IMG/VR virus record: IMGVR_UViG_3300028844_005363
Span: 10,758-74,757 of that record
DNA length: 64,000 nucleotides
Source of the DNA: a virus
Strand: one strand, 5' to 3'
The position numbers and the translations under genes were made by a program. The stretch's first letter is position 1, and every line of letters begins with the position of its first letter. The notes beneath the pieces are model-generated. The model made no database searches. It was given only the letters and a program-made list of their open reading frames with translations, and was not told the DNA's origin. Positions 3,001-39,122 of the stretch are shown here, in pieces.

Positions 3001-6000
3001 CAAGCATGGTTTCAAGTTGTGACCATGTAGATGCACCTACTATTTGAAGTAAGCTCAGTGCTACACCATTCGTTAAACCATCAACCTCACGACCGATGTC
3101 AGTAACAAACGATGTCTCGCCATTAGCATAGGCACGTTTCTGTGAAGCCAATGCAGATATACCATCTAGGCTAAACATGTTGTTACCACCTGCTTGGATA
3201 CCAGCAAGTAAGGCTGCTTGGTTCTCAGGAGTATGCCCCCAATCTTCAATAGCGATATATGCATCAACAGCTTCTTGTATTACTGGCTTATCAATAGTGC
3301 TTCTCGCAGATGCAACACCAGCAGCAATTGATTCTTTATCTGGTGATGTGCCTAATGCTTCACCTACGGCGATATAGAAGTTATCCATCAGTTGTAGGTC
3401 TGACTTACCAATCTTCACTGTGAATGACTCAGGCGCTATTACATGCCTATGGTTCTTATCTGTTTGAATATTGATAGTGTTTGATGCAATACCCATTCGG
3501 AAGTTTTTCCATACCACATGCATGAAGTAGAACGGTGATGTTTTATCCGCACTACCATCCCAGAAATCACGCATATGCTGTAAGCCACGAATCTTAGCTT
3601 CGTTGTTACGTAGTATAGAATTATGGTTTAGTGCATGCTCACCTGATAGGTCATGTTGTACCCCGCCGATCACTTCTTGAGCTTCTTCATCAAGTGACAG
3701 CAATACACCCATTAAACCAGTCTTCCAAGTATGCTTAGTGTGTGACGATTTCTCAGCAATCTTTTTAATTTTGCTTGGGATATTCTGATCACTAGCTAAA
3801 AGCTTCTCCTGCACAAACTCAGGAGGAGTATCATGTGGTGCTGTTACAGTTGACTCAACATCAAATAGTTTCTCCATTAGCTTACGTCCTGATGTCATAT
3901 CAGTAGTAAAGCGAGTTAGTGAAGCTGCCGGTGTAAATTTATTTACACTAGACTCAGCAACGTTAATAAACTTAGTGTTTTCAACTGAACCAGTTACAGT
4001 AGGTAAGCCTTGCACAAAGTTTAGTGTGTTGTTATTTACCTGAGTAATTTTTACTAAGCCTTGAGCTTCAAGCACATCAATAATTTGGAAACCAATTGAT
4101 ATTTCCATTTTACCTTTTAGAATAGCTTCGGTAGTTTTAGGTGCATTGATACCTAACGAGCGTAAATAAGTTTTACCTAGTTGTTCAGCTACAGTACGTA
4201 AGTTGTTACCTACATCAGCAAGCAAGTCTTCTTCTAAACGACTTACTATGTCATCTTGTTTCTTGTCTTTAAGTAGCGCATTAATAGCTGCATCATCATT
4301 AACGAAACCATCAAACGCTTTATCACCTAAGTAGTTGTAGGCAACGATAGCCATACCAGCAACAATATTACCGTCAGTATTATGACCAGTAATTGTATTA
4401 AACAATTCCTGTGATGGATTTCTGCCTGTGTATCGTGGGTCTGCTTTATTGAATGTAGCTTCAAAGTTCTCACGGAAGTCTTGTGTAAATTCCTGAATAT
4501 CAAGCAGCTTAGTACGCTCTTCTTCATTAAGGTCTTTAGCTACAGCCATATCGCTAATATCTAAATCAAAGAAGTTCTTTTCATTGGCTAAAACACTTTC
4601 AGTTTTACGTACTTTAAACTTACTCTTTAGGAATGCATTCTCTTCCAAAGCACGTTTAATTGTATAAGTAGGGCGCTCCAAAAAGTTCTTAGCTACGCGT
4701 AAACCAAAACGCTTAAACGGTGTATTGGCTCGCGCTTCGCTTTGCCCATTAGCGTAAACTTTAAGACCTGCTGTTACATCACGTAATGCTTGCTCACGGT
4801 TCTCAAAAGGTACTTTCTCAACAAACTTTTTAATAGAGTCTAAAATCTTATCTACTCGTTGTTTGCCGTCAGCTTTTTTAACCTTATTCAATCCAGTAGA
4901 CAGTGTTTTACGTAGGTTAGCTGTGTTCACATACTGACCAACATACTCACGAACAGTATCCAAGGCATCACGTTTGCCTATAGTTTCGTTCTGAATAGCA
5001 TCTACTTTTGCGTAAAGCTCTTTAGATAATTCTGTATCACCTATTTTTTCAGCGAATGCAGCTTGTTCAATAAGAGTAAATAATTCAGGGTTAGCTGATT
5101 TAGATGCACGGTTCTTAAGGTCTATGCTAGCAACGCGTCTAAGCGATTTTAAGGCACGTAATTGTTGTGCTGCCGTAAGTGCTTCACCACTATCTAATAT
5201 GCCTTGTACAGTCTTAGCTGCTTTGCTCTTAGGGAACTGTGAAACCAACTCATTAGTCTCAGTAGTCTGTATTGCTTGAGTTGCTTCATAAGCATCTTTT
5301 GCTTTTGTTGAGCCAGATTCTAAATCAGTCAATACATTAAGTGCTGTAGCTAATGAACCATAACGCTTAACTAACTCACGGTTAGCTAATTCAGTTTGTT
5401 TAAATGCATTCTTACTTTCAGATGCAAAGCGTACTGATGTATCAAAAGCTTCCTTTAATTCAAGGTCAGGCATTACAGCGAAGTCAGTAGCAATATTACT
5501 TGGTACGTCAGCGGCAGTAATCTCAGGTGTTGAGTCATTGTTGATAGTGATACCAGCTTCGGCTACAGCAGCTTCCCATTCAGCAGTAACCGCAGCATCA
5601 CTTTCTGATATTGGCGTACTATCAATCGCAGCTTCTACAGATTTAGTTGTAGCTTCTGATGTTGTAACCACCGGCACTACTTCACCATTAGGTGTGATAG
5701 GTGCAGCTTCTGTTACTTTTGGTTTATTACCAAATTTTTTCTGCATCATTAATGACGCTTCTGATAGTGCATGTTTAAGTGCAAAAGCTTCTGCTTTCGT
5801 AGCAGCTACTAATTTACCAGTAGTATTATCAATAGTGATACCGGTCTTCTCAGCTATACGTGCAACTTCTGGGTCATTAGGATTTTTCTTATAAGCAGCA
5901 AAACCTTGTTTAAGTGCCAGGTACTTTGCCATGTGACCTTTAGCAAATGATGCAAAATTATTTATGGCAGATGTTGCACCGGCAGTGTCATTATTATCAG

Positions 6001-8506
6001 TGGCTAATTGGATCACGTTCATGTGATCAACTAAACCCATATTAGTCTCACTACCCTCAAACACTTCACGATTTACTTCTTCAAGTGTTTTGGCTTGCTC
6101 TACTGCTTGTTGAGTAGATACATATGATTTAATACGCGAGGTAGTTTCAGCAGTTAAACCATCTGCTTTAAGTAAGTCACTTGCTTGCTCTGATGAAGGA
6201 GCTGAGTTTAATACTTGGTTCGCAGTACTGTTAGCATCCGTTGGGTTACTAATTTCAGCAATAGAAGTAATTGCAGCAGCCAAGTCTTCTGAGCTTAATT
6301 CATCAAAGCGTTTCATCTGACCAACAGCTTTAATGTACTGAACCATCTTGGCTTGCTTTGCGGCTACAGCTTGTTGGTCTTCAGGGGTTGCTATTGCATC
6401 TGTCTCAGCAGTAACTTCTTTATACAAGTTAGTTATGTGAGTACCTACTTCCTGAATTTTTTCAGCAAGTGGTTTGTCTGGATTACTTTCCAATACTTTA
6501 CGTGACAACAATACAGCCAATGCATCTTCTGCTTTGTACGTATCTTTAGTGCTATCTAAAATAGCCGCCGTGTTACCTGATGCAATTGCTGATTCAACGC
6601 GCGCAGTACGTTTGATTGATTCAGGAACCAAAGTAGATGCATTAGGTACGTCTATTTTATCTAGCACCTTTTTAACCGCAGTGCCTACTTTAACTAGGTC
6701 TTGTGTACCACCAGATACTACGCCCGCACCAGCACCAGTAAGTCCACCAGCTAAGCTACCCGCAGCAATACCAGCACCAGTACCTTTAGTAATACCAACA
6801 TCTTTATCAGCAAATACTTTTACAGCAGTGTTAGCTGTAGTTTGACCTAGACCAGACTGACCAGCTTCCTCAAGCGTTTCGCGTATAGCACCTGCCGCAG
6901 GTTGGGTTAGTATTTTAGGTATCGCTTTATCTAAACCACCAAGTCCTGTAAGTAAATTACCTTCAAATTTTGAAGCACCTGTTGCCTTAGAAATTAAACC
7001 AGCACCTAAACCTACCATTACTAATGTAGTGTCAAAGGTTCTTTTTGATAGTTCCATACGAGCATCTTCAAAGCTCATACCTTCTTTACGTAAATCTTGG
7101 TACTGAATATTAGATGATAGTGTTTCTTCTGATTTACCAAGTACTCTCGCCTTAGCATCTACCGCATTAGACAAACCTTCTGATGCACTTACATAAGCCA
7201 AGTTGGCTCTTGATGCAGCTTTACTTAACGCAGCCTTACCCACATCACTAGCTTTATAAGCAGTAATTTCAGCAGCAGATAAACCACTAAGTTTAGATGC
7301 TTGAGCAGCTTTACCTACAGCACCACCAGCAAATAGTTGAAGTGAGCTTTCTAAAGCCACATCGTATAAAGCTAGCTTATTGGTTTTGTAGCTCTCGAGT
7401 GCCGCCCCAATATCACCACCAAGGTCAACAACACTAGCGCCAAGTTCTGAGTAACCTTGATTAAGCATTTTCTCAATACGAACTTCGCGACCTTCGTCAC
7501 GTATTTGACCAGAGCGAGCCACTTCTTCTAATTCAGATTTAACCTGATCACTATTAAAGTTATCGGTAATAAATTCACGCGCTTGGTTAAAATTTTGTGA
7601 TAGCGCTTGGTCATTACCAGTAAGCTTTTTATTAATACGACTAGATATAGCATCTAAACTATCTGGTTTTAAATCAGTACCGGCTAATTGGTCTACAGCA
7701 CCTAATGCTTCGCTTACTGGATTCTTTCTTGATAACAGATCAAGTGCACCGTAAGCCATCTGTCCTAAACCTAAAGCACCTTTAGCACCTACAGCAGTAG
7801 CAATATCCTGATTTACTTCTAAGTCTGTTCTAGGCTCGCGTAGGTCTTTACCTTTGATAACAGCATCACGATGTTTAGAAACAGCGGCATCTAGTTCACG
7901 GATACGCTTTTCACTAGGTGTTAAGCCACGTGTCTCATCATAGTCAGGTGACACTTCTTGAGTAGGTTTGTACTTACTAATATTTTCAGGCGTAGCTGGG
8001 GCTACTCTTGTTAGTGTAGTTGGTGTACCTTCATGCGTATTCTGCTGATAAATATCAAGACCTTTAGTTACATACTGAGGTGTTTTCTCAAAAGGTGCCG
8101 TGACAGTATCAAATGCTGCTTTAGCATAAGCAAAACCATTATTGGTAGTTGGTTCATTTGTTGGTTCAGGTGCTTGTGCAACTACAGGGCGCTCAATATT
8201 TGGAGGTGTGAATGTAGGTATGCGTTGCACGTTCGGTGCAATATCAGTTTGTGCAAACAATTGTTGCTCACCTTCTGCATAAGGTCTTGATTCAGGCACT
8301 ACGTCTACAGGACGTTCAATAGCAGGTGCATTAGCTTCAGGGTTCATGTGATTTACAATGTCAGCAAGCATATCTGCATTTACATTTAGTGTACCGCGCT
8401 CGCCAGCACCCTGAATATTACTTGCAGTTTTTATTACATCTTCGGGTGACATACCACGGGCAATTAGTGTTTGTGCAATATCTCTGGTGCTTGGGGTGTT
8501 CGCCAT
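1..8506 (-). CDS. Virion-encapsidated RNA polymerase (N4 gp50-like), 3' end beyond the left edge
   Basis: ATG at 8506 (MANTPSTRD...) with AGGAG RBS. Same frame carries T7-family motifs EVDGLTNG (motif A, ~3080), RQLAKDPLMTSNYG (motif B, ~2660-2700) and VNVHDA (motif C, ~1805). About 2835 codons in window; probably missing from the ORF track because no stop falls inside the window. Confidence 0.96.
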   Translation of the reverse strand, partial: MANTPSTRDIAQTLIARGMSPEDVIKTASNIQGAGERGTLNVNADMLADIVNHMNPEANAPAIERPVDVVPESRPYAEGEQQLFAQTDIAPNVQRIPTFTPPNIERPVVAQAPEPTNEPTTNNGFAYAKAAFDTVTAPFEKTPQYVTKGLDIYQQNTHEGTPTTLTRVAPATPENISKYKPTQEVSPDYDETRGLTPSEKRIRELDAAVSKHRDAVIKGKDLREPRTDLEVNQDIATAVGAKGALGLGQMAYGALDLLSRKNPVSEALGAVDQLAGTDLKPDSLDAISSRINKKLTGNDQALSQNFNQAREFITDNFNSDQVKSELEEVARSGQIRDEGREVRIEKMLNQGYSELGASVVDLGGDIGAALESYKTNKLALYDVALESSLQLFAGGAVGKAAQASKLSGLSAAEITAYKASDVGKAALSKAASRANLAYVSASEGLSNAVDAKARVLGKSEETLSSNIQYQDLRKEGMSFEDARMELSKRTFDTTLVMVGLGAGLISKATGASKFEGNLLTGLGGLDKAIPKILTQPAAGAIRETLEEAGQSGLGQTTANTAVKVFADKDVGITKGTGAGIAAGSLAGGLTGAGAGVVSGGTQDLVKVGTAVKKVLDKIDVPNASTLVPESIKRTARVESAIASGNTAAILDSTKDTYKAEDALAVLLSRKVLESNPDKPLAEKIQEVGTHITNLYKEVTAETDAIATPEDQQAVAAKQAKMVQYIKAVGQMKRFDELSSEDLAAAITSIAEISNPTDANSTANQVLNSAPSSEQASDLLKADGLTAETTSRIKSYVSTQQAVEQAKTLEEVNREVFEGSETNMGLVDHMNVIQLATDNNDTAGATSAINNFASFAKGHMAKYLALKQGFAAYKKNPNDPEVARIAEKTGITIDNTTGKLVAATKAEAFALKHALSEASLMMQKKFGNKPKVTEAAPITPNGEVVPVVTTSEATTKSVEAAIDSTPISESDAAVTAEWEAAVAEAGITINNDSTPEITAADVPSNIATDFAVMPDLELKEAFDTSVRFASESKNAFKQTELANRELVKRYGSLATALNVLTDLESGSTKAKDAYEATQAIQTTETNELVSQFPKSKAAKTVQGILDSGEALTAAQQLRALKSLRRVASIDLKNRASKSANPELFTLIEQAAFAEKIGDTELSKELYAKVDAIQNETIGKRDALDTVREYVGQYVNTANLRKTLSTGLNKVKKADGKQRVDKILDSIKKFVEKVPFENREQALRDVTAGLKVYANGQSEARANTPFKRFGLRVAKNFLERPTYTIKRALEENAFLKSKFKVRKTESVLANEKNFFDLDISDMAVAKDLNEEERTKLLDIQEFTQDFRENFEATFNKADPRYTGRNPSQELFNTITGHNTDGNIVAGMAIVAYNYLGDKAFDGFVNDDAAINALLKDKKQDDIVSRLEEDLLADVGNNLRTVAEQLGKTYLRSLGINAPKTTEAILKGKMEISIGFQIIDVLEAQGLVKITQVNNNTLNFVQGLPTVTGSVENTKFINVAESSVNKFTPAASLTRFTTDMTSGRKLMEKLFDVESTVTAPHDTPPEFVQEKLLASDQNIPSKIKKIAEKSSHTKHTWKTGLMGVLLSLDEEAQEVIGGVQHDLSGEHALNHNSILRNNEAKIRGLQHMRDFWDGSADKTSPFYFMHVVWKNFRMGIASNTINIQTDKNHRHVIAPESFTVKIGKSDLQLMDNFYIAVGEALGTSPDKESIAAGVASARSTIDKPVIQEAVDAYIAIEDWGHTPENQAALLAGIQAGGNNMFSLDGISALASQKRAYANGETSFVTDIGREVDGLTNGVALSLLQIVGASTWSQLETMLARTGMFTDPDMTYAKWREQPGNYDSYEDISLGWTNAFKELKKVITTGVGYDNLTKGEQRAVQRLKKNKVNLNKLNALETIVGSFIEDKESSSALDVVTKLGRQLAKDPLMTSNYGAAIKKIIANFSMTVLDKLHEEIAKNLATIEVTDKFIASNKGVLALKNFDKRAEAKAEGAKARARVEELRNAVNTVVGKRVKLDKKVGLTDEVDVANFVDTVSDYFGAPLETAMDEKFGTFVESRKLLVNAVSEATTMFKKMYHARIESEKAERKALDPNFVDLSQEDYLEIERDLKNVMPIMANYFSESVEDGFMPVGKENIVTKDATSRIEYKYSKPHSYNERGHTGTHQTNKPTKPVGSLNSMSYNQTFEDAGPNAVVGQVHGMDAATMYLTMAEYAAVNVHDALIFSLNDVEKGTETFNKAMTDVAMSDFSIVDNIAEMHSRVLDAYASMFPADFEELPNMSVALKVMQQETQQYRAVIKNKIAVVQQYNKGEGGAYKTNLPSLTELGFQEVEAEFLETFNIPKPGERAPKRTAKSIYSKETAKEFLDEVDKAVESLDTRKGRRLLGTLRNEFEINFNNLEVYEAERANQLALVLDDLQVVPVDVQISMPDGAIANDTNVTIGENFLKEVNYEYITDAVNATSEYTVVDLFSTDTDVTTVVLRRPVDENQGTLFSDGVSSIDIENFVASSTREVDAMNSEQIFNVLGKVGNVSDPITHTKHLEKLLGTLVNKVMDPIKLHVRSGGNTTVGAIQNDKVFLNIGRGMLANGTQMSAQETYLHELLHHVTQIGINANSLVSRQLEKMWEISRKEITAKDFININSANQMVDRDGVVITEQSLSYPTELAAAQLRYDYIYNNTNNDSVGRNSYLHEFLVFGTTNRAFMNALDKVDMTVAPANSLWKNIWAGDITSTFLKIVERLADQLGQRITGTKNLNGSEAMMQMAHALASVDNTKKGTIAATYDRATTALDAKVKATALWAVAPLTAILKSKPAQAIKPVANL

Positions 8507-10669: not shown

Positions 10670-12865
10670 TTATAAACTTAAACCAGAAGTATTAACACTA
10701 GGTAATTCTAATTGCCCTTCGTAAAAATTCGTTAGTGCATCTAAAGCGTACACACCGGGATTAGGTGAACCTACTGTTCTACCGAAAAAATTATCAGGTG
10801 TTTCATTTGCTAAGAAACCAGTGTTACGTACTATCCAAGCTGGGTCTACCCCGACATCTAATAAGCCGTCACTCGCTTCTTCTAAAGCATCCATTGCTTC
10901 ATTGTATTCTGTTAAAAACTCTGCGTATTCTTCTTCGAGGTCTTTAAACTCTTCCTCTGTAAACTCATTAATATTTTGAGCCACTAAGGTTACGATTTTA
11001 AGCATATCCTCTGCATTAGGTAAGTAAGCAAAAGTCTCACCAGTAAATCCGTAATAAGCTGAAACTGCTGCTGCTATTATAGCTAGTACAAGTGCTACTT
11101 CCCCACCAAATTGGTTAGCTAGGAATGTAGTTACTACACCCACTGCTTCAGAAACAGCAGCACCTATAATAATGGCTTCAAGAATATAGGCAACTACTTC
11201 ACTAATACCTTGTTGAACAGCAACACCTATTTGAGGTGACATATATATAACAGACACAACAAAAACAATAACTTTAACTGCTGCCCAAAAGTCTTCTCGC
11301 TCATACCATTTAAGTTTTATCTGCTTAGATGATTGAGTAACTAGAACCATACTTGATAGCATTGCTGCTGTAGCTTTAGATTTTGACATACTACTAACTA
11401 CTGTATGGTTCATAGGTATAACAATGCCTGATAAAACATCTTCACTATCTAAAGGGAAAGCATTTCTAAGTGTATATATCGGTGTCTGAGTACTATCCAG
11501 ATAATTAGTAACCAGCTTATTAGCTAAGTTACCTACTCGCATTCTTCTGCCTGTTCGTGCTACAGCATCATAGTAATCAACATAGATATAACTAACTTCC
11601 CCTGTTTGTTCTTCTATCTCCCAAGTATCGTTGTAGCCTTGGTCATAGTTAATATACTTACCGAACTTATAACCAGACTCGCCATTAATATAAGGTATTG
11701 TTTGGCTATCCATGTAGCCCCATGAAAGCTGTACTTTGAAACTAGAAGGTATCTGCTCATAGAACCATAAGTAAGAGGTGTCACCTCTGTATATGTTTCC
11801 AGACTCTTCCCATTCAAGTTTGGTTTTAGGACCATAGTTTTCAATTATGTATTCCATAAACTTATACAAGTATTCTAAGAGTATTTCATCTAGCTCAAGT
11901 ATATCGGAAATAACTAAAGCAGGTGCGATATACGCTCTGTTTACTTCAGCAATATCAGGGTTAGACTCAAGATTTTCTTTTATAGTATCTAAGTCCATAC
12001 CGTAATATTCTAGTAAACGTTCTGTCTGTTTAAGACGTTCAGCGTTTTCCTCAGCATCTTCAGTAGACTCTTCACCTATCCATTCTGGACTTGATTCAAG
12101 AGAACCTAATCTTATTAAAGCCAGTGGGTAGTACTGGCTTTGGATACCACCTAATATAATTTCTGTTAGGTCAGGGTAAGTCCATTTCTGTGGGTCATAA
12201 GTAAAATAGAAATCTGAGGTAGCACCATAACTAAAACGTATACGCACCACTTTATTTAGTGTGCTACCTGGGTCTCTGAAGTCACTCCAAGTCTTATAAA
12301 TTTTGCCTGTTTCTAAAGTAGCTGCTTTATTATCTGGGTCAAACATATCGTAAGTAACAACCAAATCATATTCAGGTGGTGCTTGTGGGTCATCATCTGG
12401 GTTACTTCTTTCGTACTCAACATCTGTTACTTCTGCCGCATAACCAGTAGGCATATTAAACATGTTAATATAATAGCCACTACGTTTATCTACTTTACCG
12501 TTAAAAACATTAGCTATATTAGCCAGTTCATATATTGCCGTAATAACTTTATCATACTCATTAGTTACGTAAGTAATATCAGAAGACGAAGTACTTAGTT
12601 CACCAGCTAGCCAAGATTTTACTGCATCCCAATCTATAAGCTCATCTTCATTATTTGCTTGCCATATGCCACGGTAGTAGTCATTCAATCCATAGCTATA
12701 TGCTTTACGGAAATCTACGTTGTAACCACTGACAAGCCCGTCAAGAATAGTAGGTACTTTTTCCCAATCATTTATGACAGCACGCAAAATAGATGACCTA
12801 ATTATATTAGGACGTTCTGTGAATATTGGTGTAGCTGATGCACCTACTACCGTATAAGTTGCCAT
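10670..12865 (-). CDS. N4 gp53-like virion-associated protein
   Basis: 731 aa, hydrophobic C-terminal segments after KWYE motif; synteny between gp52 and gp54. Confidence 0.7.
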   Translation of the reverse strand: MATYTVVGASATPIFTERPNIIRSSILRAVINDWEKVPTILDGLVSGYNVDFRKAYSYGLNDYYRGIWQANNEDELIDWDAVKSWLAGELSTSSSDITYVTNEYDKVITAIYELANIANVFNGKVDKRSGYYINMFNMPTGYAAEVTDVEYERSNPDDDPQAPPEYDLVVTYDMFDPDNKAATLETGKIYKTWSDFRDPGSTLNKVVRIRFSYGATSDFYFTYDPQKWTYPDLTEIILGGIQSQYYPLALIRLGSLESSPEWIGEESTEDAEENAERLKQTERLLEYYGMDLDTIKENLESNPDIAEVNRAYIAPALVISDILELDEILLEYLYKFMEYIIENYGPKTKLEWEESGNIYRGDTSYLWFYEQIPSSFKVQLSWGYMDSQTIPYINGESGYKFGKYINYDQGYNDTWEIEEQTGEVSYIYVDYYDAVARTGRRMRVGNLANKLVTNYLDSTQTPIYTLRNAFPLDSEDVLSGIVIPMNHTVVSSMSKSKATAAMLSSMVLVTQSSKQIKLKWYEREDFWAAVKVIVFVVSVIYMSPQIGVAVQQGISEVVAYILEAIIIGAAVSEAVGVVTTFLANQFGGEVALVLAIIAAAVSAYYGFTGETFAYLPNAEDMLKIVTLVAQNINEFTEEEFKDLEEEYAEFLTEYNEAMDALEEASDGLLDVGVDPAWIVRNTGFLANETPDNFFGRTVGSPNPGVYALDALTNFYEGQLELPSVNTSGLSL

Positions 12866-17817: not shown

Positions 17818-19968
17818 TTAGTTATTCTGGGACTTATCTCCCGAATTTTCAAGTTGTTTCTTTATAATCTCAAGTTCCATGTTTCCTTGGGCTTGGGCTT
17901 TTTGTTTCTGCAAGTCACGCTCTTGAGTTGTACCAGACTCTTTCTCTACGAAATCCAGAGAGTTTATATCAGCTTCCGAATCCAACTTACGAGCCTTACT
18001 AGCTTCGGTTACTGCTTTAGCTCTATCCAGTACAGCCTTAGCTTGTTCTGACATAGGTTCGATAGTTTTCTTCTGTAACTCAGCTTCAAGAACAGCAATA
18101 CGTAATTCTTGTTCACGTTGTGCTAATGGGTCAGGAGTCGGTTTGAACTCTTCTAACTCTTTAGCCAATGCAGGCATTTTACGTAGACGAGCAATGTTAG
18201 CTAAAATCTTCTGCGACAGTTCAGGCATCATATTGTTACCCATAGTCTGTAGCATGAAAGCCAACTCTTGCGCTTTAGCGTTATCAACTTCAGCAGAACT
18301 AATATCAACTACTAGGTCAAAATTACCTGCTAAGTCATCTCGTCTAATGTCAGCAAATACATCGTCAGTAACACGCACGTATTCTTGCTCAGAAAGATAA
18401 ACACCATTCATTGCAATTATTCTACGAGCCACACGTTTAAGACCGTCTGACATTCTTCGTAGGATACCAAGCTCACGTTTACTTGCAGCATCTAAAGCGC
18501 CACGGATACCAGTAGCTACATCACCTAAACCATCACCACTAATGCCACCGGCAAATGCACGAACACCTGTTAGTGATTCAGCTTCTTGGTTTTGCATCTG
18601 TAACATCAAGGGTGCTGATTGTGGAATTTCTTCCATCTTATTCATGTAGAATAATTTGCTAGGATCAGTTTGCCCTTGGAACTCAAAATCATCACCGTCT
18701 TTAAACTTACGGCGGTTAGTAATATTAAGAGCATCGTTACGTACGCCACGTTGACCATTTGCAGAACGAGCCACAATATCAATCATAGCGCGAGTTAGTG
18801 CACCTGCAATTTTTTGGTTGTCTTCTAAAAGTACACCATCTGGCTCACCATAAATTGCTTTACGTACTGGCAAATATTGAACTATTTCAAAAGGTGGTTT
18901 TCTATCAGGGAATGGATTTTCTTCCATACGTATAAGTATATTACCAACCCATGCAGCAACAATTGGTACAGTAGTACCATCATCGTGAATATCCCAATCA
19001 CCCCAATATTCTGTAACTACTAATTCTTTACGTGCTTTGTCGCTAAATTCAAAACTCTTTTCATCAGCATCTTCGTAATCAGGGTGAGCCAAAGCTTCAT
19101 TGCTGCCTGGTCTAATTTTATCTAAATCAAAGTAAATACCTTGTGCTTTTAAACCAGATAAAGAACTTGTGAAGTTATACCCAACAAATCTAGCATCTTC
19201 TATTTTACCTTCACAAGATGGATCAACTACCACATTTTTATAGTGACAAATTTCTAAAGTAGGTTGGTTTTTAACAGTACGTTCTTCGCTAACTTCTTCC
19301 TCATCTTCTAGTATAGCAACGTGAGGAATACCAGTAGCTTGCGTGTATTGTAGTGCTATTTTGTTATGCTCAGGCACCGAGTCAAAGTCATACTCTTCTG
19401 ACTGAGAAAGCTCTATAAGCTTCTGTAAGCGCTTCGCTACTGTAGGGTCATTAGTTGGTGCATAAGAATAGTTTTGTACTGTACGAGTAACTACAGCAAT
19501 CTCTTCTTCCCAACCAATACGTACAATAATAGTACCTTCATCTACAGCAGTACGTACATACTCATCAATGAAAGCCACCTTCTCAATTTGTGTATTAAAC
19601 TGATTGTTTATAATAAGGTTATTTTGGCGTGCTGCTAGCTTATCTGCATGCGTTGTAGGACGTATACTGAACATATTCTCAGTACTTAGAAAAGCTTCTG
19701 ACAATGCGGCGTACCGCCATTCTGCCTGTTTACGTATAAGCTTAGTCTGCACAGATGAACGATTAGGACGTTTTTTAACTGCCGCTGAACCACGTACATG
19801 CAAGTTATCTAGGTATCGGTCTATCTTCGCTACTTGAGTACTATGATCTGATTTGGCACTTGTTAAGTCTTTTTCCAAATCAGATATTGAAGGTACACTA
19901 GTCCATTCAGGTAAATTACTAGGTGCACTAGTATCTTCCTCGTTGTAGTCATCTTCTGCTTCTAACAT
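17818..19968 (-). CDS. Portal protein (N4 gp59-like)
   Basis: 716 aa; KLIRKQAEWRY, EYWGDWDI, ENPFPD, ARSANGQ motifs. Confidence 0.93.
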   Translation of the reverse strand: MLEAEDDYNEEDTSAPSNLPEWTSVPSISDLEKDLTSAKSDHSTQVAKIDRYLDNLHVRGSAAVKKRPNRSSVQTKLIRKQAEWRYAALSEAFLSTENMFSIRPTTHADKLAARQNNLIINNQFNTQIEKVAFIDEYVRTAVDEGTIIVRIGWEEEIAVVTRTVQNYSYAPTNDPTVAKRLQKLIELSQSEEYDFDSVPEHNKIALQYTQATGIPHVAILEDEEEVSEERTVKNQPTLEICHYKNVVVDPSCEGKIEDARFVGYNFTSSLSGLKAQGIYFDLDKIRPGSNEALAHPDYEDADEKSFEFSDKARKELVVTEYWGDWDIHDDGTTVPIVAAWVGNILIRMEENPFPDRKPPFEIVQYLPVRKAIYGEPDGVLLEDNQKIAGALTRAMIDIVARSANGQRGVRNDALNITNRRKFKDGDDFEFQGQTDPSKLFYMNKMEEIPQSAPLMLQMQNQEAESLTGVRAFAGGISGDGLGDVATGIRGALDAASKRELGILRRMSDGLKRVARRIIAMNGVYLSEQEYVRVTDDVFADIRRDDLAGNFDLVVDISSAEVDNAKAQELAFMLQTMGNNMMPELSQKILANIARLRKMPALAKELEEFKPTPDPLAQREQELRIAVLEAELQKKTIEPMSEQAKAVLDRAKAVTEASKARKLDSEADINSLDFVEKESGTTQERDLQKQKAQAQGNMELEIIKKQLENSGDKSQNN

Positions 19969-20003
19969 TTATATGCCTTAAAAGTGTTTATATTTGTTTG
20001 TAT

Positions 20004-20018
20004 AGTAGCTGCGCTACT
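20004..20018 (+). promoter_or_regulatory. Triloop hairpin promoter candidate (class B)
   Basis: AGTAGC-TGC-GCTACT, template strand C-GCA-G, upstream of the plus-strand island. Confidence 0.5.
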
Positions 20019-20057
20019 GCTCCCGAATCAATCAATAAATCCGTAGAGAAATATATA

Positions 20058-20642
20058 ATGAATAATGAACCGGTAGATTATAACAAAGGTTGTGACAATA
20101 CACAGTCTCCTTATTATGTAGGTGAACCAGAACAATGTGATTTATGTTCTAGTATGGTTCCAGAAGGTTGTACTACGCAAGTATCAACTACTCAGCATGC
20201 TTGTGTAAGTTGCCTTAATGTCATTAACCAGTTTAAACCAGATTACCCAACAGTGTTTTCCGACCAGGCAGAGTTTCTTACTGCCGGGGATGTACCATTC
20301 CCTCTTACTGACCAAGATGAAATGACTCCAATGCAGTCGGCTGAACTTCTTGTAGATGAGTATGAAGAGTGGGGTGAGGAATCACACTACTTAAGAACTG
20401 GTAACTTGAATGACTTAAAGGAGTGTATTGATATTATTTACACTGCTGCTCAATACTTGAATCAGTCCGTTGGTGTTACTGCTGCGGGTAAACTGTGGGA
20501 TATTGTACACAAGCATAATATGAGTAAGTGTATTGACGGTAAACTACGTAAGTTACCTAACGGTAAAATTGATAAACCAGAAGGCTTTGATAAGATGTCA
20601 TTCATTCCAAAATTTGAAGAGGTTCTTTCAGATGAGTTCTAG
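20058..20642 (+). CDS. MazG/DR2231-like all-alpha NTP pyrophosphatase with N-terminal CxxC-CxxC zinc finger
   Basis: DEYEE, KECIDIIY, VHKHNMSK, NGKIDKPEGF motifs; CDLC...CVSC. Confidence 0.8.
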   Translation: MNNEPVDYNKGCDNTQSPYYVGEPEQCDLCSSMVPEGCTTQVSTTQHACVSCLNVINQFKPDYPTVFSDQAEFLTAGDVPFPLTDQDEMTPMQSAELLVDEYEEWGEESHYLRTGNLNDLKECIDIIYTAAQYLNQSVGVTAAGKLWDIVHKHNMSKCIDGKLRKLPNGKIDKPEGFDKMSFIPKFEEVLSDEF

Positions 20643-21210
20643 TAGCGTCTTGGATATAATTTCAAATATCACTGACCCTAAGCAATGCACTGCTGAAAAA
20701 ATTAGTGGTATGTGCGATATGTCCGTACATCAACTCAGACGCAAGTACGCTACCGATATTAAGTTACATAAACAATCGCTTAACAATAAACCGCCTACTG
20801 TGGCAGTTACCCCTACCGCACCTAATGAATCTAACCAAGAGCTGTTAAAAATTTTAGTTACCTTGTCGGCAAAAGTAGACAAACTTACTAAAGAAGTAAT
20901 TAAGCTGCGAGATAAGCGCAGTAAAGACGAGACTAGTGAAGGTTGGTACTCTACTGGCTATGATATGAATGGTACGATGGCTGGTGATAGAGAAGCCTAC
21001 GTTGAACTACTTTTTGCTAGTGGCGCTAAGCGCAAAATGACATGGGGTGATTACATAGATTCAGGTAGAAGGTTTATAGCTTTTGTTAATACCAATTACG
21101 AAGATGCAGGTGATTGCTCAAGTGATGTTTATATGTCTATACGTCCTTGTGAGACACCTCCGCATACCGCAAGTATCCGTAAAATAATGAAACATTTAGG
21201 AATTAAGTAA
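20632..21210 (+). CDS. Hypothetical protein (possible N-terminal HTH plus coiled coil)
   Basis: ORF coupled to both neighbours. Confidence 0.6.
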   Translation: MSSSSVLDIISNITDPKQCTAEKISGMCDMSVHQLRRKYATDIKLHKQSLNNKPPTVAVTPTAPNESNQELLKILVTLSAKVDKLTKEVIKLRDKRSKDETSEGWYSTGYDMNGTMAGDREAYVELLFASGAKRKMTWGDYIDSGRRFIAFVNTNYEDAGDCSSDVYMSIRPCETPPHTASIRKIMKHLGIK

Positions 21211-21917
21211 TGAGCTTTAATGTATACAAACAAGGTACCAATGGTTACGCACTTTACTTCGCTAAAGGCGATTGGCGTGAGTCGGCAAGTGTTCGTAATG
21301 ATCAACTTAAACCAGTAGCTGAAGCTATGATTGGTATTACAGGTACTTTGAACCATGGCAAGAATACTTTAGCTGGTCTAATCCAGAGTCATTTAGTAAC
21401 TACCAAACGTAAAGAGATGGCTTTTGGGGATGCACCTAAAGTAATACTACAAAAAGTATTTCCTAAGTGGACTTCAGCACACTTTTATACGCGCGAACTT
21501 AAAGAAGCTGTTTGCCCTATATATGGTATTAGTCCTCGTACAGCTATGACTAAGTTCGGTACTGACTTTATGCGTAACTCACTTGGTTTACCACGTTACT
21601 GGATTAACTTATTAGAGGAGGATATGGAAACTCTTGGCCGTAAACCAGAAGACGTAATCATTACTGATATACGTTTTAATAATGAAGCTGCTTGGGCTAA
21701 GTCTAATGATGGTTTCATTATCCGTATACGTGACCCTCGTAAACCTGTACCTACTGAAGAAGAAAGTGAGCAAGGTATCTCTACCATGTTCATTGATTTC
21801 GATATAGAAAATGATGGCTCTATTGATGACATCGTAGATAAACTCCTTATACTGAAACCTCTTTATTACTTACCAAAGAGTTTTCCAGAAGATGAATCGC
21901 GAATATTCCCTCAGTAA
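21210..21917 (+). CDS. Deoxynucleoside monophosphate kinase
   Basis: P-loop GITGTLNHGKNT, SPRTAMTKFGTD, IITDIRFNNEA. Confidence 0.88.
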   Translation: MSFNVYKQGTNGYALYFAKGDWRESASVRNDQLKPVAEAMIGITGTLNHGKNTLAGLIQSHLVTTKRKEMAFGDAPKVILQKVFPKWTSAHFYTRELKEAVCPIYGISPRTAMTKFGTDFMRNSLGLPRYWINLLEEDMETLGRKPEDVIITDIRFNNEAAWAKSNDGFIIRIRDPRKPVPTEEESEQGISTMFIDFDIENDGSIDDIVDKLLILKPLYYLPKSFPEDESRIFPQ

Positions 21918-22362
21918 AAACAGTCAAGCAAAGGTAGATACGTGCGCTCCTATTATTAAATCAGTAGTAGCGCGCGCTATGGAAATTGCTAATACTCGTA
22001 AATTACACTGCCCTGATTGGGGTGTTAGTTCAGGTAAACGAACCACTGATGAACAATTCAATATGTACCGTAAAGGTCGTTCAATGGTTATCAAAGATAA
22101 AGGTTCAAGTGAGTACGCTGTAGTTGACCCATTTAAAGTTATTACTAATGCGGATGGTTACGCTAAGAAGTCAGCTCATCAAACTGGTTTAGCTATTGAT
22201 ATTTATTGCTATGTTGATGGTCAAACTAATTACGACTTTGATAATTTAGCTGCTGTTGCTACATGCTTATTTGCTGCTGCTTGTGAACTAGGTGTGCATC
22301 TAGTTTGGGGTGGTAACTGGAATAGCCTAACGGATGCACCTCATTTCGAGGTGAAGCTATGA
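21892..22362 (+). CDS. Endolysin, M15 L-Ala-D-Glu peptidase
   Basis: GKRTTDEQ, SAHQTGLAID, WGGNW, DAPHFE. Confidence 0.9.
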   Translation: MNREYSLSKNSQAKVDTCAPIIKSVVARAMEIANTRKLHCPDWGVSSGKRTTDEQFNMYRKGRSMVIKDKGSSEYAVVDPFKVITNADGYAKKSAHQTGLAIDIYCYVDGQTNYDFDNLAAVATCLFAAACELGVHLVWGGNWNSLTDAPHFEVKL

Positions 22363-22916
22363 ATATATTAATCCATGGTTACAATGTACGTGACCCAATG
22401 ACTACTGTAGGGCGTTTACAGAAGCGTTTATCTAATACCTATCTATTTGTATATGGTTGGTTTGGTTTGACCTCTGTACTGCTATACAACAAACGTGAAG
22501 CCATAAAACTTAAAGAGCTTTTAGACCAGCATCCTGAAAGTACTGTTTATGCACATTCGAATGGTTGTGCTATTGCTGTATTAGCTGCTGAGTTGGGAGC
22601 CAAGATTAAAACATTGGTTTGTATTAACCCTGCGCTGAAGACTGATTATGTATTCCCAGATACGATTACTAATGTAGGTGTGGTTCATACTAAACATGAC
22701 GTACCAACTAAGGTAGCTCGTTTCTTGGATTACGTACCGTTTATTCAGTTGATTGTACCTAACGCATGGGGAGCCATGGGAAACTATGGTGCAGAAGATA
22801 AGCGAGTTAAAAACTTTGATTTCAGTGATTACTTAGATGGGCATAGTGCTTTTTTTGAGTATAGAAATATGGATATATGTTTGCCTGTTGTTCGTTCGTG
22901 GGTAAAACAATTGTAA
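22359..22916 (+). CDS. Alpha/beta hydrolase (lipase/esterase-like)
   Basis: IHGYN oxyanion motif, AHSNG nucleophile, HDVP Asp, GHSAF His. Confidence 0.8.
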   Translation: MNILIHGYNVRDPMTTVGRLQKRLSNTYLFVYGWFGLTSVLLYNKREAIKLKELLDQHPESTVYAHSNGCAIAVLAAELGAKIKTLVCINPALKTDYVFPDTITNVGVVHTKHDVPTKVARFLDYVPFIQLIVPNAWGAMGNYGAEDKRVKNFDFSDYLDGHSAFFEYRNMDICLPVVRSWVKQL

Positions 22917-22920
22917 AATT

Positions 22921-22945
22921 AGCCATCCTTCGGGATGGCTTTTTT
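22921..22945 (+). terminator. Intrinsic terminator at convergent junction
   Basis: AGCCATCC-TTCG-GGATGGCT followed by T tract. Confidence 0.85.
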
Positions 22946-22953
22946 ATTTGGAA

Positions 22954-23400
22954 TTAAATGCCGTCCTTATATTTTTCAGTGAATGATCGCATTTCATCTT
23001 TCATAGGTTGCATCAACTGTGTAATGCCACTAACTATGTCATGTTTAATTACCTGAGAAACCAAATAATCTAAAGATACTGGTTTAGGCATATAGTCTAC
23101 AACACCTAAATGTATCGATTGGCTTAGATTATCAGGGTCATCACTACCAGAAACGAATATAACAGGAATGTCCTTAGTTACTTCATTAGACTTCAAGGCT
23201 GTGCAAACCTGAAAGCCATCCATGCCTGGCATAACTAAATCCAATACTACAAATGAAGGTTTATGTTCTAGGGCATATTCCACTGCTTTTGTGGGATCAG
23301 CCAAAGCAATTGCTTTAACTCCCGCACGCTCAAAAGCTTCTAGGAATACACGCCTATCTAAAGGACTATCATCAATAATAAGTACAGTCGCATTACACAT
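22954..23400 (-). CDS. Stand-alone response-regulator receiver (CheY-like) protein
   Basis: IIDDS, VVLDLVMPGMDG (phospho-Asp), FVSG, YMPKP all intact. Confidence 0.92.
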   Translation of the reverse strand: MCNATVLIIDDSPLDRRVFLEAFERAGVKAIALADPTKAVEYALEHKPSFVVLDLVMPGMDGFQVCTALKSNEVTKDIPVIFVSGSDDPDNLSQSIHLGVVDYMPKPVSLDYLVSQVIKHDIVSGITQLMQPMKDEMRSFTEKYKDGI

Positions 23401-23403
23401 ATT

Positions 23404-23706
23404 TTATTCCTTGTTGTGATTATGCTGCTGAAGATTAGTTAAAGTCATGCTGTGCAATCTTTTTTCTAAATCCAGTTCAGCCCGCAAAATCGTGTCGTTA
23501 AGTTTTCGAAGGTCAACCCCAAGCGGAACCAGTTTACCATCTATGTCGGTTAACTTTGCCTGAATGATTTCAACATCTTTTTTTAAGTTGGCATTATCCA
23601 ATGCAAGAGCTTCAATCTTTTCTTTCTGCTTACTCCAAGCATTAGCTAATGCACCAATAGGTACTATTAAAATTGCCCAAATGAAAGACATTAAATTCAA
23701 ATCCAT
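23404..23706 (-). CDS. Single-TM coiled-coil protein (holin-like position)
   Basis: N-terminal TM (SFIWAILIVPIGALANAW) then leucine heptads. Confidence 0.6.
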   Translation of the reverse strand: MDLNLMSFIWAILIVPIGALANAWSKQKEKIEALALDNANLKKDVEIIQAKLTDIDGKLVPLGVDLRKLNDTILRAELDLEKRLHSMTLTNLQQHNHNKE

Positions 23707-23847
23707 ACTTACCTCTATTTTGATTACCTGCCTCTATCAGATCAGAGAAATACACCTCTGAGGTGCTATGTTACGCAAGTATTAGATATAAATATAGGAA
23801 TACCCGACTGTACTTAATCATACAGTCAGGGTGATTACAGAAGCTTT

Positions 23848-25146
23848 CTACATAGCATCCAATTCTTCTAAGTAAATACGATCAGACATAACAGCTCTAT
23901 CAAATACTATTTCCTTATTATATAGCTTGTTGTTTATCATAACGTTCTTCAAAGTGATAATGTCGCCTGTAGCATAAAAACGCATAATAGGCGTAATACT
24001 AGCATCATCCAGCAAAATCTTACCGCCGATAACATCAATACGTGAATTATCAGAAGAGTAAGCTATGTTGGTTCGTAGCACTGAACCTCTATCCAAGCTA
24101 AGCTCATCAAACGATTGCGCGTCACCATATATGTTACAACCAATTACTTTTACATAGCCCTGTGATTGCACACAAGCACCTTCATCACGAAAAGCTCTTG
24201 TATTTTTAATAGTACAACCAATCAGCTTATTGGTTAACGAGTATGACCATACACCAACACCGTATTTACAGGTGTTCATTGTAGAGTCTACTACGCGCAT
24301 ATCCCCACCTTTACAATCAATACCTCGGTCGCCACAATTTAGAAAGTGACTATCATAGATACGCTGCTTAGTACCCGCATTAATAGTAATACCATCACCT
24401 TGAATATAACTGTCGATAATCTCCCCTGTATTATTTTGAGTGAAACCACAGTTTTTAACATACAGACTTCTTATGTATAAGTTATCTGCAATGTTACAAG
24501 TGATTGCATTAGGGTACGCCGCGCCTTGCACCGAAGCCATATCAATCTTAGCATCAGTAATTGTAACGTCCTTAACATTGTCGTATAGACGAATACCAGC
24601 TTTCTTCAAGTACTTCGCTCTAAAATTATCCACAACTACAGGACCATTAGTAGAAGCTATATATATACCGGTAGATGCGTTAAACACTTTAATATCAGAA
24701 AGTCTATTACTGCCTGAATTAGAGTGCATATACAGTGCGCTGTTAAAGTGAAAGAAAGTCATGCACGTTATATCGGTATGCTTAGATTCAACAAAAAAAG
24801 CCAAAGCACCATCACTATCTGTATTTTCCCAAGGATACTGTGTAACCCCTAAAAAGTAAGGAGCCGTATCTCTCGTAGGTAGTACCGCATTACGTGAAGG
24901 GGCGCTACCACCTATAATACGTAACTTACCTTCGCTGCTTCCGCTATTGGCTTGATATGTATGAATACTGTCATCTATATCTATGTTACTTTTTTCGCCT
25001 TTTATTTTACTTATAAGCAAAACATCATCTTTACCTAACTTGTCGGTGCTGTCTAAAATTTTAGATTTAATTTCAGCCAATCCCATTGAGTTAGCCCAAG
25101 AACCACCAGTGTTTGAACCACTAGGACTTGCTCTGTATATACCCAT
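23848..25146 (-). CDS. Right-handed beta-helix protein (putative depolymerase/tailspike)
   Basis: Repeating GIYI/GIRL/GDGITI/GDRGIDCKG beta-helix rungs. Confidence 0.7.
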   Translation of the reverse strand: MGIYRASPSGSNTGGSWANSMGLAEIKSKILDSTDKLGKDDVLLISKIKGEKSNIDIDDSIHTYQANSGSSEGKLRIIGGSAPSRNAVLPTRDTAPYFLGVTQYPWENTDSDGALAFFVESKHTDITCMTFFHFNSALYMHSNSGSNRLSDIKVFNASTGIYIASTNGPVVVDNFRAKYLKKAGIRLYDNVKDVTITDAKIDMASVQGAAYPNAITCNIADNLYIRSLYVKNCGFTQNNTGEIIDSYIQGDGITINAGTKQRIYDSHFLNCGDRGIDCKGGDMRVVDSTMNTCKYGVGVWSYSLTNKLIGCTIKNTRAFRDEGACVQSQGYVKVIGCNIYGDAQSFDELSLDRGSVLRTNIAYSSDNSRIDVIGGKILLDDASITPIMRFYATGDIITLKNVMINNKLYNKEIVFDRAVMSDRIYLEELDAM

Positions 25147-38709: not shown

Positions 38710-38919
38710 ATGAATAAACTCAAAACAGTATGTGGCTTACTAGTACCAGTGCTAATAACCCTAGTTTTAGGGTTCTTCGCGCTAGGCAGTACAGTAGCAA
38801 TGATTTATACAGGTGAAATTATACCTGTGTATATTCCATTAAATATATTGATGGCAATCGTCATATGGATGATTTGGCACTCATATATTCAACTTAAAAA
38901 ATCAACAGGAAGTAAGTAA
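38710..38919 (+). CDS. Two-TM membrane protein
   Basis: Two hydrophobic helices. Confidence 0.65.
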   Translation: MNKLKTVCGLLVPVLITLVLGFFALGSTVAMIYTGEIIPVYIPLNILMAIVIWMIWHSYIQLKKSTGSK

Positions 38920-39122
38920 TGAGAATAAAATCAGATATATGTCTAGGCATGATTGTAGGTGCACTAATGGTTATATTGTTAGGTGCTGTTGTGCAGACAG
39001 TTCAGCAACAAAATGAGTATGCTGAAGCAGCGGATGAGTGCGTACAAAAGTTAATTAGTGATGGTGTTCCTCGTAATAACATCATGACATTGAAAGGCAA
39101 ATGCTACTTGGGAGCAGAGTAA
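38919..39122 (+). CDS. Single-TM protein
   Basis: N-terminal TM, Cys pair. Confidence 0.65.
   Translation: MRIKSDICLGMIVGALMVILLGAVVQTVQQQNEYAEAADECVQKLISDGVPRNNIMTLKGKCYLGAE

Follow-up and report, generated by a model that had tools for sequence, protein, structure and literature searches.

A CheY-like receiver co-inherited with a membrane coiled-coil protein among phage lysis genes: a possible membrane-tethered regulator of lysis timing

Burst size and phage fitness depend on when lysis occurs. To our knowledge, none of the known ways of adjusting this timing (dual-start antiholins, superinfection sensing by T4 RI/RIII, N4 gp62) uses host phospho-signalling. The lysis cassette of phage N4 comprises the pinholin gp63, the lysis regulator gp62, the endolysin gp61 and the spanins gp60/60a, and it separates the tail genes from the portal gene (2025 preprint, PMC12642591). 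The 'receiver domain' of that paper refers to a region of gp63 that its authors so named, and not to a CheY fold. A protein published as 'CheY-like' is on record from an Alteromonas schitovirus, A5 gp11 (PMC10579305), so that the statement, made in a preliminary description of the locus analysed here, that N4-like phages are not known for two-component genes is outdated. Both A5 gp10/gp11 and ORF29/ORF30 of the myovirus V22 have been published as a 'hypothetical protein' followed by a 'CheY-like protein', under the label of class II AMG (PMC10579305, PMC7289586), and other homologues, those of phages R8W and H4/4, carry the label 'PhoB' (PMC8228385). None of these three papers mentions a partner or a link to lysis, and our full-text literature searches found no paper tying a receiver to phage lysis.

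The locus described here belongs to a complete viral genome of 74,757 bp (IMG/VR record IMGVR_UViG_3300028844_005363), of which positions 10,758 to 74,757 were analysed as one stretch of 64,000 nucleotides, the window; positions are those of the window unless stated otherwise (Table 1). The phage is marine; of the sequencing runs listed for it none was of RNA, and the best DNA runs are from a marine metagenome, which may be its source. The similarity of its portal protein to N4 gp59, together with a giant ORF of the size of a virion RNA polymerase that fills the start of the window, identifies it as N4-like. Between the tail-spike gene, which is the last structural gene upstream, and the portal gene, which marks the far boundary of the lysis slot of N4, lie a gene for a stand-alone receiver (REC) and, directly upstream of it, a gene for a small protein with one transmembrane (TM) helix and a predicted coiled coil (TM-CC). 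The two take the genome places of N4 gp63 and gp62. The preliminary description had placed the membrane gene at the 'holin position', which fits the arrangement in N4, where the genes for the pinholin and its regulator have the tail genes on one side and the endolysin gene on the other (PMC12642591). N4 gp63 and TM-CC are alike in size (about 100 aa), in combining a single membrane helix with a helical domain in the cytoplasm, and in being followed by a regulator gene. However, gp63 (locus L212, 6322-6654, minus strand) has these parts in mirror order, the cytoplasmic helical domain first and the membrane anchor at the C-terminus, and no sequence similarity between TM-CC and gp63 was detected. 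The second genes differ too, since gp62 is a membrane protein with two TM helices, unlike the receiver.

Table 1. Features of the receiver locus and other relevant genes of the phage (window positions unless marked otherwise)
Feature	Position	Strand	Basis or remark
Portal gene	17818-19968	-	44% identity to N4 gp59 over 694 residues
M15 peptidase endolysin gene	21892-22362	+	Peptidase_M15_4 E 3e-11; PHROG 465 E 1.6e-31
Gene for 185 aa that overlaps the stop of the endolysin gene (ATGA)	22359-22916	+	no Pfam or PHROG match
GC-rich hairpin between REC and the convergent endolysin island	22921-22940	.	terminator-like on the plus strand only
REC, CheY-type stand-alone receiver, 148 aa	22954-23400	-	ORF; Pfam PF00072
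Coupling junction AAG GAA TAA AAT ATG	23398-23412	-	sequence reading
TM-CC, partner of REC, 100 aa	23404-23706	-	ORF; no Pfam match
Weak hairpin in the 141-nt tail-spike/TM-CC spacer (23707-23847)	23752-23766	-	
Beta-helix tail-spike gene	23848-25146	-	Pfam Beta_helix E 7.6e-9
Small membrane ORF, 69 aa, 2 TM	38710-38919	+	
Small membrane ORF, 67 aa, 1 TM	38919-39122	+	
Small membrane ORF, 71 aa, 2 TM, charged C-terminus	genome 7974-8189	+	just before the window

REC matches the Pfam family Response_reg over residues 6-117 (E 4.7e-23), and this is its sole Pfam match. The residues of the phosphorylation site and the switch are all present (D10, D11, D54, S84, Y103 and K106-P107), and the AlphaFold2 model (pLDDT 84) has the (beta-alpha)5 architecture of five strands and five helices. 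Both the fold and the family's hallmarks (the DD pocket, the acceptor Asp, T/S, the aromatic switch and Lys) are thus those of PF00072. The protein ends 31 residues past the receiver domain, and these residues are helical in the model, in which alpha5 extends over residues 110-143 as a stalk. Pfam, the alignment and the model thereby confirm the complete phosphorylation site and the helical tail that had been claimed from the sequence. In Foldseek comparisons REC matched the receiver RR468 with a TMt of 0.91-0.92, its best full-length structural matches were to WspR (3bre and 3i5a, TMq 0.80-0.81 over 144-145 columns), and by sequence profile the nearest solved receiver was PleD (E 6e-38). The extended alpha5 stalk of WspR and PleD (3bre, 3i5a, 1w25) is shared by REC. 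Their GGDEF domain is absent from it: no GGDEF match was obtained, and the 148-aa protein stops after the stalk. In its model, REC therefore looks like a receiver and stalk of the WspR type without the catalytic domain. The WspR stalk forms a coiled coil. Nor was there any Pfam match to the winged-helix domain Trans_reg_C, and we rejected an identity as a DNA-binding regulator of the PhoB/OmpR kind, PF00072 being the only domain of the protein.

With CheY-FliM, DivK, CpdR and Spo0F, REC has in common the lack of an output domain, a complete phospho-acceptor site and a T/S plus Y/F switch. It is unlike them in being encoded by a lytic phage without a kinase, in its conserved stalk and tail of about 35 residues and in its obligate membrane-partner gene. 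Searches of the complete 74,757-bp genome for HisKA and HATPase_c gave no match while the controls were positive, and REC is the only receiver in it. The earlier observation that the window lacks a histidine kinase is thus borne out and holds for the whole genome, in which no kinase is encoded alongside the regulator as it would be in a two-component system.

The N-terminus of TM-CC is short and acidic; one membrane helix and a basic cluster follow, and then a long helix that ends in a conserved motif, D65 ... R83-L84. The single N-terminal membrane helix followed by continuous predicted helix confirms the single-TM coiled-coil gene reported upstream of the receiver; the structure model is one long helix (pLDDT 77). 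No Pfam family matched. Weak PHROG matches were to a holin (PHROG 19508, E 2e-4, over the membrane helix) and to an Rz-like spanin (E 3e-3), and the look-alikes in the ESM Atlas were unnamed viral proteins and generic coiled coils. A TM-CC profile run against 1.84 billion representatives recovered 33 proteins at E <= 1e-3, of 82-153 aa except for one of 694 aa. They follow a common plan of acidic N-terminus, hydrophobic helix, K/R cluster, variable helical stretch and C-terminal motif, the core of which is an invariant Asp. In all members compared (34/34), the part after the membrane helix contains more K and R than the part before, and the mean net charge changes from -1.2 before the helix to +1.6 after it. 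By the positive-inside rule, this charge distribution predicts an N-out/C-in topology, in which the long helix would share the cytoplasm with the receiver. We rejected an identity of TM-CC as an i-spanin, the topology being reversed and an o-spanin missing: no ORF with a lipobox lies within or beside the gene. The true Rz-like genes of A5, V22 and an 84-kb contig (L010), which these carry separately, besides the pair, have their K/R before the helix, unlike TM-CC.

The two genes are closely coupled. At the junction the TM-CC stop is followed by 3 nt and then by the REC start in the same frame, as had been read from the sequence and as we confirmed. A ribosome-binding site is embedded there, with a GGA core about 8 nt 5' of the REC ATG. 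The in-frame TAA would permit a read-through chain of 250 aa. However, the gaps between the two genes in relatives are -8, -4, +1, +2 and +4 nt, so that a read-through fusion is no feature of the family, and we rejected a programmed TM-CC-REC fusion because the frame is not conserved. Judged from these gaps, it is the tight coupling of the two genes that is the family feature and not the in-frame spacing, which in the window is probably due to chance, in agreement with the preliminary description. No fused TM-CC-REC proteins were found, the matches of 250-268 aa being double receivers; the TM-CC profile found no longer proteins either, which is weak evidence.

Wherever the context of a locus could be read (the window, L004, L005/6/8/9/49/50, L007/L002, L010, L048, V22 and A5), TM-CC lies directly upstream of REC. 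The partner at L048 was detected at E 1.1e-8 by a TM-CC profile built without it. Pairwise identities among the REC and among the TM-CC sequences are correlated (Mantel r 0.88, permutation p 2e-4), and the two sets split into identical subgroups. On these comparisons TM-CC and REC travel together and are inherited as one unit. Of the reciprocal locus searches started from TM-CC, one confirmed no relative and another gave just two already-known contigs.

A REC profile search of 5.8 billion proteins yielded about 50 clusters, with lengths of 139-152 aa and scores of 150-250 bits, below which the scores fall to those of generic receivers. The longest of the contigs with a family member are of phage size (35-75 kb). 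The family was not found among 185,579 prokaryote species (one genome each), and since the best match there had just 33-36% identity, it appears from these searches to be restricted to phages. D10, D11, D54, S/T84, Y/F103 and K106-P107 are kept in 48/48 aligned members. Further residues particular to the family are C66, H97, G99, D102, H120, P132 and Y144, of which the last six are invariant and fall in the alpha4-beta5 stretch, alpha5 and the tail. All cultured carriers of the pair, A5, V22, R8W, H4/4 and R9Y, infect Alteromonas; a megablast of the region against cultured phages gave no close relative. The receivers of Foturvirus and R9Y belong to the same subfamily as REC (41-42% identity along the whole chain with its tail), and a TM-CC homologue is encoded upstream of them, on backbones that differ from that of the window, T7-like in the former and siphoviral in the latter. 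A5 and V22 represent a distant subfamily (receivers 20-26% identical to REC, partners 14-23% to TM-CC) with the same layout, an N-terminal membrane helix and coiled coil and then a receiver of about 148 aa with a tail, placed after tail-fibre genes. A5 is a 75-kb schitovirus, and its pair occupies the same slot before the portal gene as that of the window.

In seven phage lineages checked here, the pair adjoins holin, endolysin or spanin genes of differing families. In the T7-like Foturvirus phages H4/4 and R8W it follows a tail fibre and a class II holin (PHROG 1356, E 3e-14) and precedes a 2-TM protein and the terminase. In R9Y-type siphoviruses it is followed by a GH108 lysozyme and a small TM protein. 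The order in L010 is tail fibres, pair, DUF5675, a small TM protein, an i-spanin and an o-spanin with a lipobox, and in L004 (a 45-kb contig) a divergent multi-TM gene, the pair and a convergent endolysin of the A5-gp14 type. In A5 a chaperone gene is followed by gp10/gp11, the Rz-like gp12 (PHROG 4297, E 2.9e-8), the 2-TM, holin-like gp13, the endolysin gp14 and, further on, the portal gene. V22 has a papain-like amidase, ORF29/ORF30, the Rz-like ORF31 (also PHROG 4297), the likewise 2-TM and holin-like ORF32 and, later, DUF5675. At L048 the pair stands just before lambda-type terminase genes, the place at which lambdoid lysis cassettes end, and its upstream context is truncated. The cell-wall enzymes that flank the pair thus come from at least four or five unrelated families, which argues that its association with lysis does not reflect one cassette copied around. 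By our own estimate, which takes a probability of about 5-10% per genome of falling within one gene of a lysis gene and assumes independent lineages, such placement in seven lineages is very unlikely to be due to chance; the assumption is weakened because Alteromonas phages exchange modules. The linkage on which the preliminary description staked its proposal, that of the receiver to the membrane gene and to lysis genes, is therefore found with both, and in unrelated phages.

Within the window itself, the pair had been described as ending the tail operon and facing the endolysin gene across a shared terminator. Its position after the tail genes, with the tail-spike gene upstream and the M15 endolysin gene convergent, is confirmed; it may be transcribed with the tail genes or separately. 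As for the terminator, a GC-rich hairpin does lie between REC and the endolysin side, but it is terminator-like on the plus strand only; the minus-strand tail reads AATTTTAC and is weaker as a terminator. On the minus strand of the spacer upstream of TM-CC (23707-23847), no sigma-70-like promoter was flagged. The endolysin gene forms part of an inverted island (19998-22916, plus strand) of five genes, among them a dNMP kinase gene, between the minus-strand portal and tail genes, unlike the lysis genes of A5 and N4, which share the strand of their neighbours. In A5 and V22 the genes that come next on the strand of the pair encode an Rz-like spanin, a 2-TM protein and an endolysin; the first two of these are missing from the window, which has the inverted endolysin island instead. 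The 185-aa product encoded next to the endolysin contains an AHSNG motif like the nucleophile elbow of alpha/beta-hydrolases, and the gene may encode a second lytic enzyme, an esterase or lipase, coupled to the endolysin.

We give about an even chance to the reading that the pair is a membrane-tethered phospho-switch, acting as an accessory regulator of lysis timing. Both genes have intact motifs, they are strictly paired and co-inherited, and they are found repeatedly among lysis genes; we infer that the proteins bind each other, that REC is phosphorylated and that lysis is affected. TM-CC would insert with its N-terminus out and its long helix in the cytoplasm, and REC would dock on this helix through its alpha5 stalk and its alpha4-beta5-alpha5 face. 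Because the phage encodes no kinase, Asp54 would receive its phosphoryl group from a host histidine kinase or from acetyl phosphate. The phosphorylation state of REC could then alter the assembly of TM-CC in the inner membrane, and this could advance or delay the formation of a hole made by the holin of the phage or, in this phage, possibly by TM-CC itself. It is by position that the pair might be counted with the antiholins and lysis regulators (T4 RI and RIII, lambda S107, N4 gp62). Several points weigh against a lysis-timing switch. Known antiholins are specific to one holin, whereas the holins and endolysins that flank the pair are of different families. Adjacency alone can also mislead, since accessory genes often settle in late-gene and lysis regions. 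L048 shows only terminase genes downstream, and no fused TM-CC-REC protein has turned up. Finally, the lineages may not be fully independent, as all the cultured carriers are Alteromonas phages that exchange modules (PMC10579305).

The heterogeneity of the neighbouring lysis genes would fit a target other than a holin. The tethered REC could be a decoy that drains or diverts phosphoryl groups from host histidine kinases, with TM-CC a mere anchor and the position among lysis genes incidental; we consider this reading, which comes near to the published label of class II AMG, unlikely. Such a decoy could, for example, silence an envelope-stress, chemotaxis or nutrient response late in infection. 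An intact phospho-site without a phage kinase is what a decoy would have, and a membrane tether would bring REC near membrane kinases. The cultured carriers all infect one host genus, which suggests a host-specific target, and the homologue has been labelled an AMG (PMC10579305, PMC7289586). However, the conserved motif at the C-terminus of TM-CC would be superfluous in a mere anchor, the pair lies repeatedly inside, and not merely near, lysis cassettes of differing gene order and orientation, and the 'PhoB' reading fails for lack of a DNA-binding domain. Another late function altogether, such as the exclusion of superinfecting phages at the inner membrane, or a part in assembly or release for a factor that travels with tail-fibre modules, as would follow from the published 'host recognition module', is the least probable of the alternatives. 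The pair does follow tail-fibre or chaperone genes directly in the window, A5, V22, Foturvirus and L010, and modules of A5, V22 and P24 are reported to have been exchanged together (PMC10579305). Against this, the pairs of L004 and L048 are not beside tail genes, the lysis cassettes of tailed phages often follow tail genes anyway, and it is not obvious what a phospho-receiver in the cytoplasm would do in adsorption.

The stronger form of the idea in the preliminary description would make TM-CC the holin or pinholin of this phage, with REC as its cytoplasmic gate, which we find improbable, a little more so than the decoy. TM-CC is a small membrane protein in what corresponds to a lysis cassette, it adjoins lysis genes in several lineages, and it is the sole membrane protein next to the endolysin of the window. 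It could be the holin here because searches of the genome detected neither a PHROG holin nor homologues of A5 gp12 and gp13 nor a lipoprotein spanin. The slot and the mirrored one-helix plan of N4 gp63 (PMC12642591) and the weak match to a PHROG holin point the same way. So does LysF1b of the F1-cluster mycobacteriophages, a small protein with a single N-terminal membrane helix, predicted to be N-out/C-in and needed for efficient lysis (PMC13056207); it is likened to TM-CC by description, and it has a Gram-positive-like host and no receiver partner. On the other side stand the missing homology to gp63 and an M15 endolysin without a signal-anchor, which would need a large-hole holin. The genome also contains three other small membrane ORFs, its only other holin-like candidates (Table 1). 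Moreover, relatives that bear the pair have their own holin-like, endolysin and spanin genes, so that TM-CC is probably not a holin in general; judged by gene content, it is additional in those relatives whose lysis set is complete. Of the signal-gated lysis module that had been proposed, the linkage of REC to the membrane gene and to lysis genes thus stands, and a general role of holin for its membrane protein probably does not.

For the lysis-timing switch, the combination of a conserved phospho-site, a constant membrane partner and placement in lysis cassettes offers a testable route by which a phage could read host physiology before lysis. More broadly, and with somewhat less assurance than for the switch itself, some lytic marine phages may time lysis by an input of the two-component type, with a tethered, kinase-less receiver that would read host phosphorylation and gate the formation of holes. 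If true, this would be the first case of a phospho-relay feeding into the timing of phage lysis, and such receivers would form a new class of lysis regulators acting in the cytoplasm. As several carriers are in culture (A5, V22, R8W, H4/4 and R9Y), the idea is directly testable. While the homologues in A5 and V22 and those labelled 'PhoB' were already known, the comparison with the N4 slot, the family-wide count of topology, the test of co-inheritance and the match to the WspR stalk are new here.

The annotation of the relatives is affected as well. The labels 'PhoB' and 'DNA-binding regulator' are incorrect for the receiver proteins of this family. The genes at A5 6410-7745 (L209) and V22 4410-5281 (L208) resemble a lysis cassette. 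The genes neighbouring the pair in these phages have been published as unknowns of the 'host recognition module' (PMC10579305, PMC7289586), and the description as an AMG within that module misses the spanin-, holin- and endolysin-like A5 gp12-14 and V22 ORF31-32. DUF5675 (PHROG 1501, function unknown) occurs at the endolysin position in L010 (5398-6374), where genes for a small TM protein, an i-spanin and an o-spanin come after it, and in V22 (L208, 6071-6478), which suggests from gene order that DUF5675 may be an uncharacterised type of endolysin.
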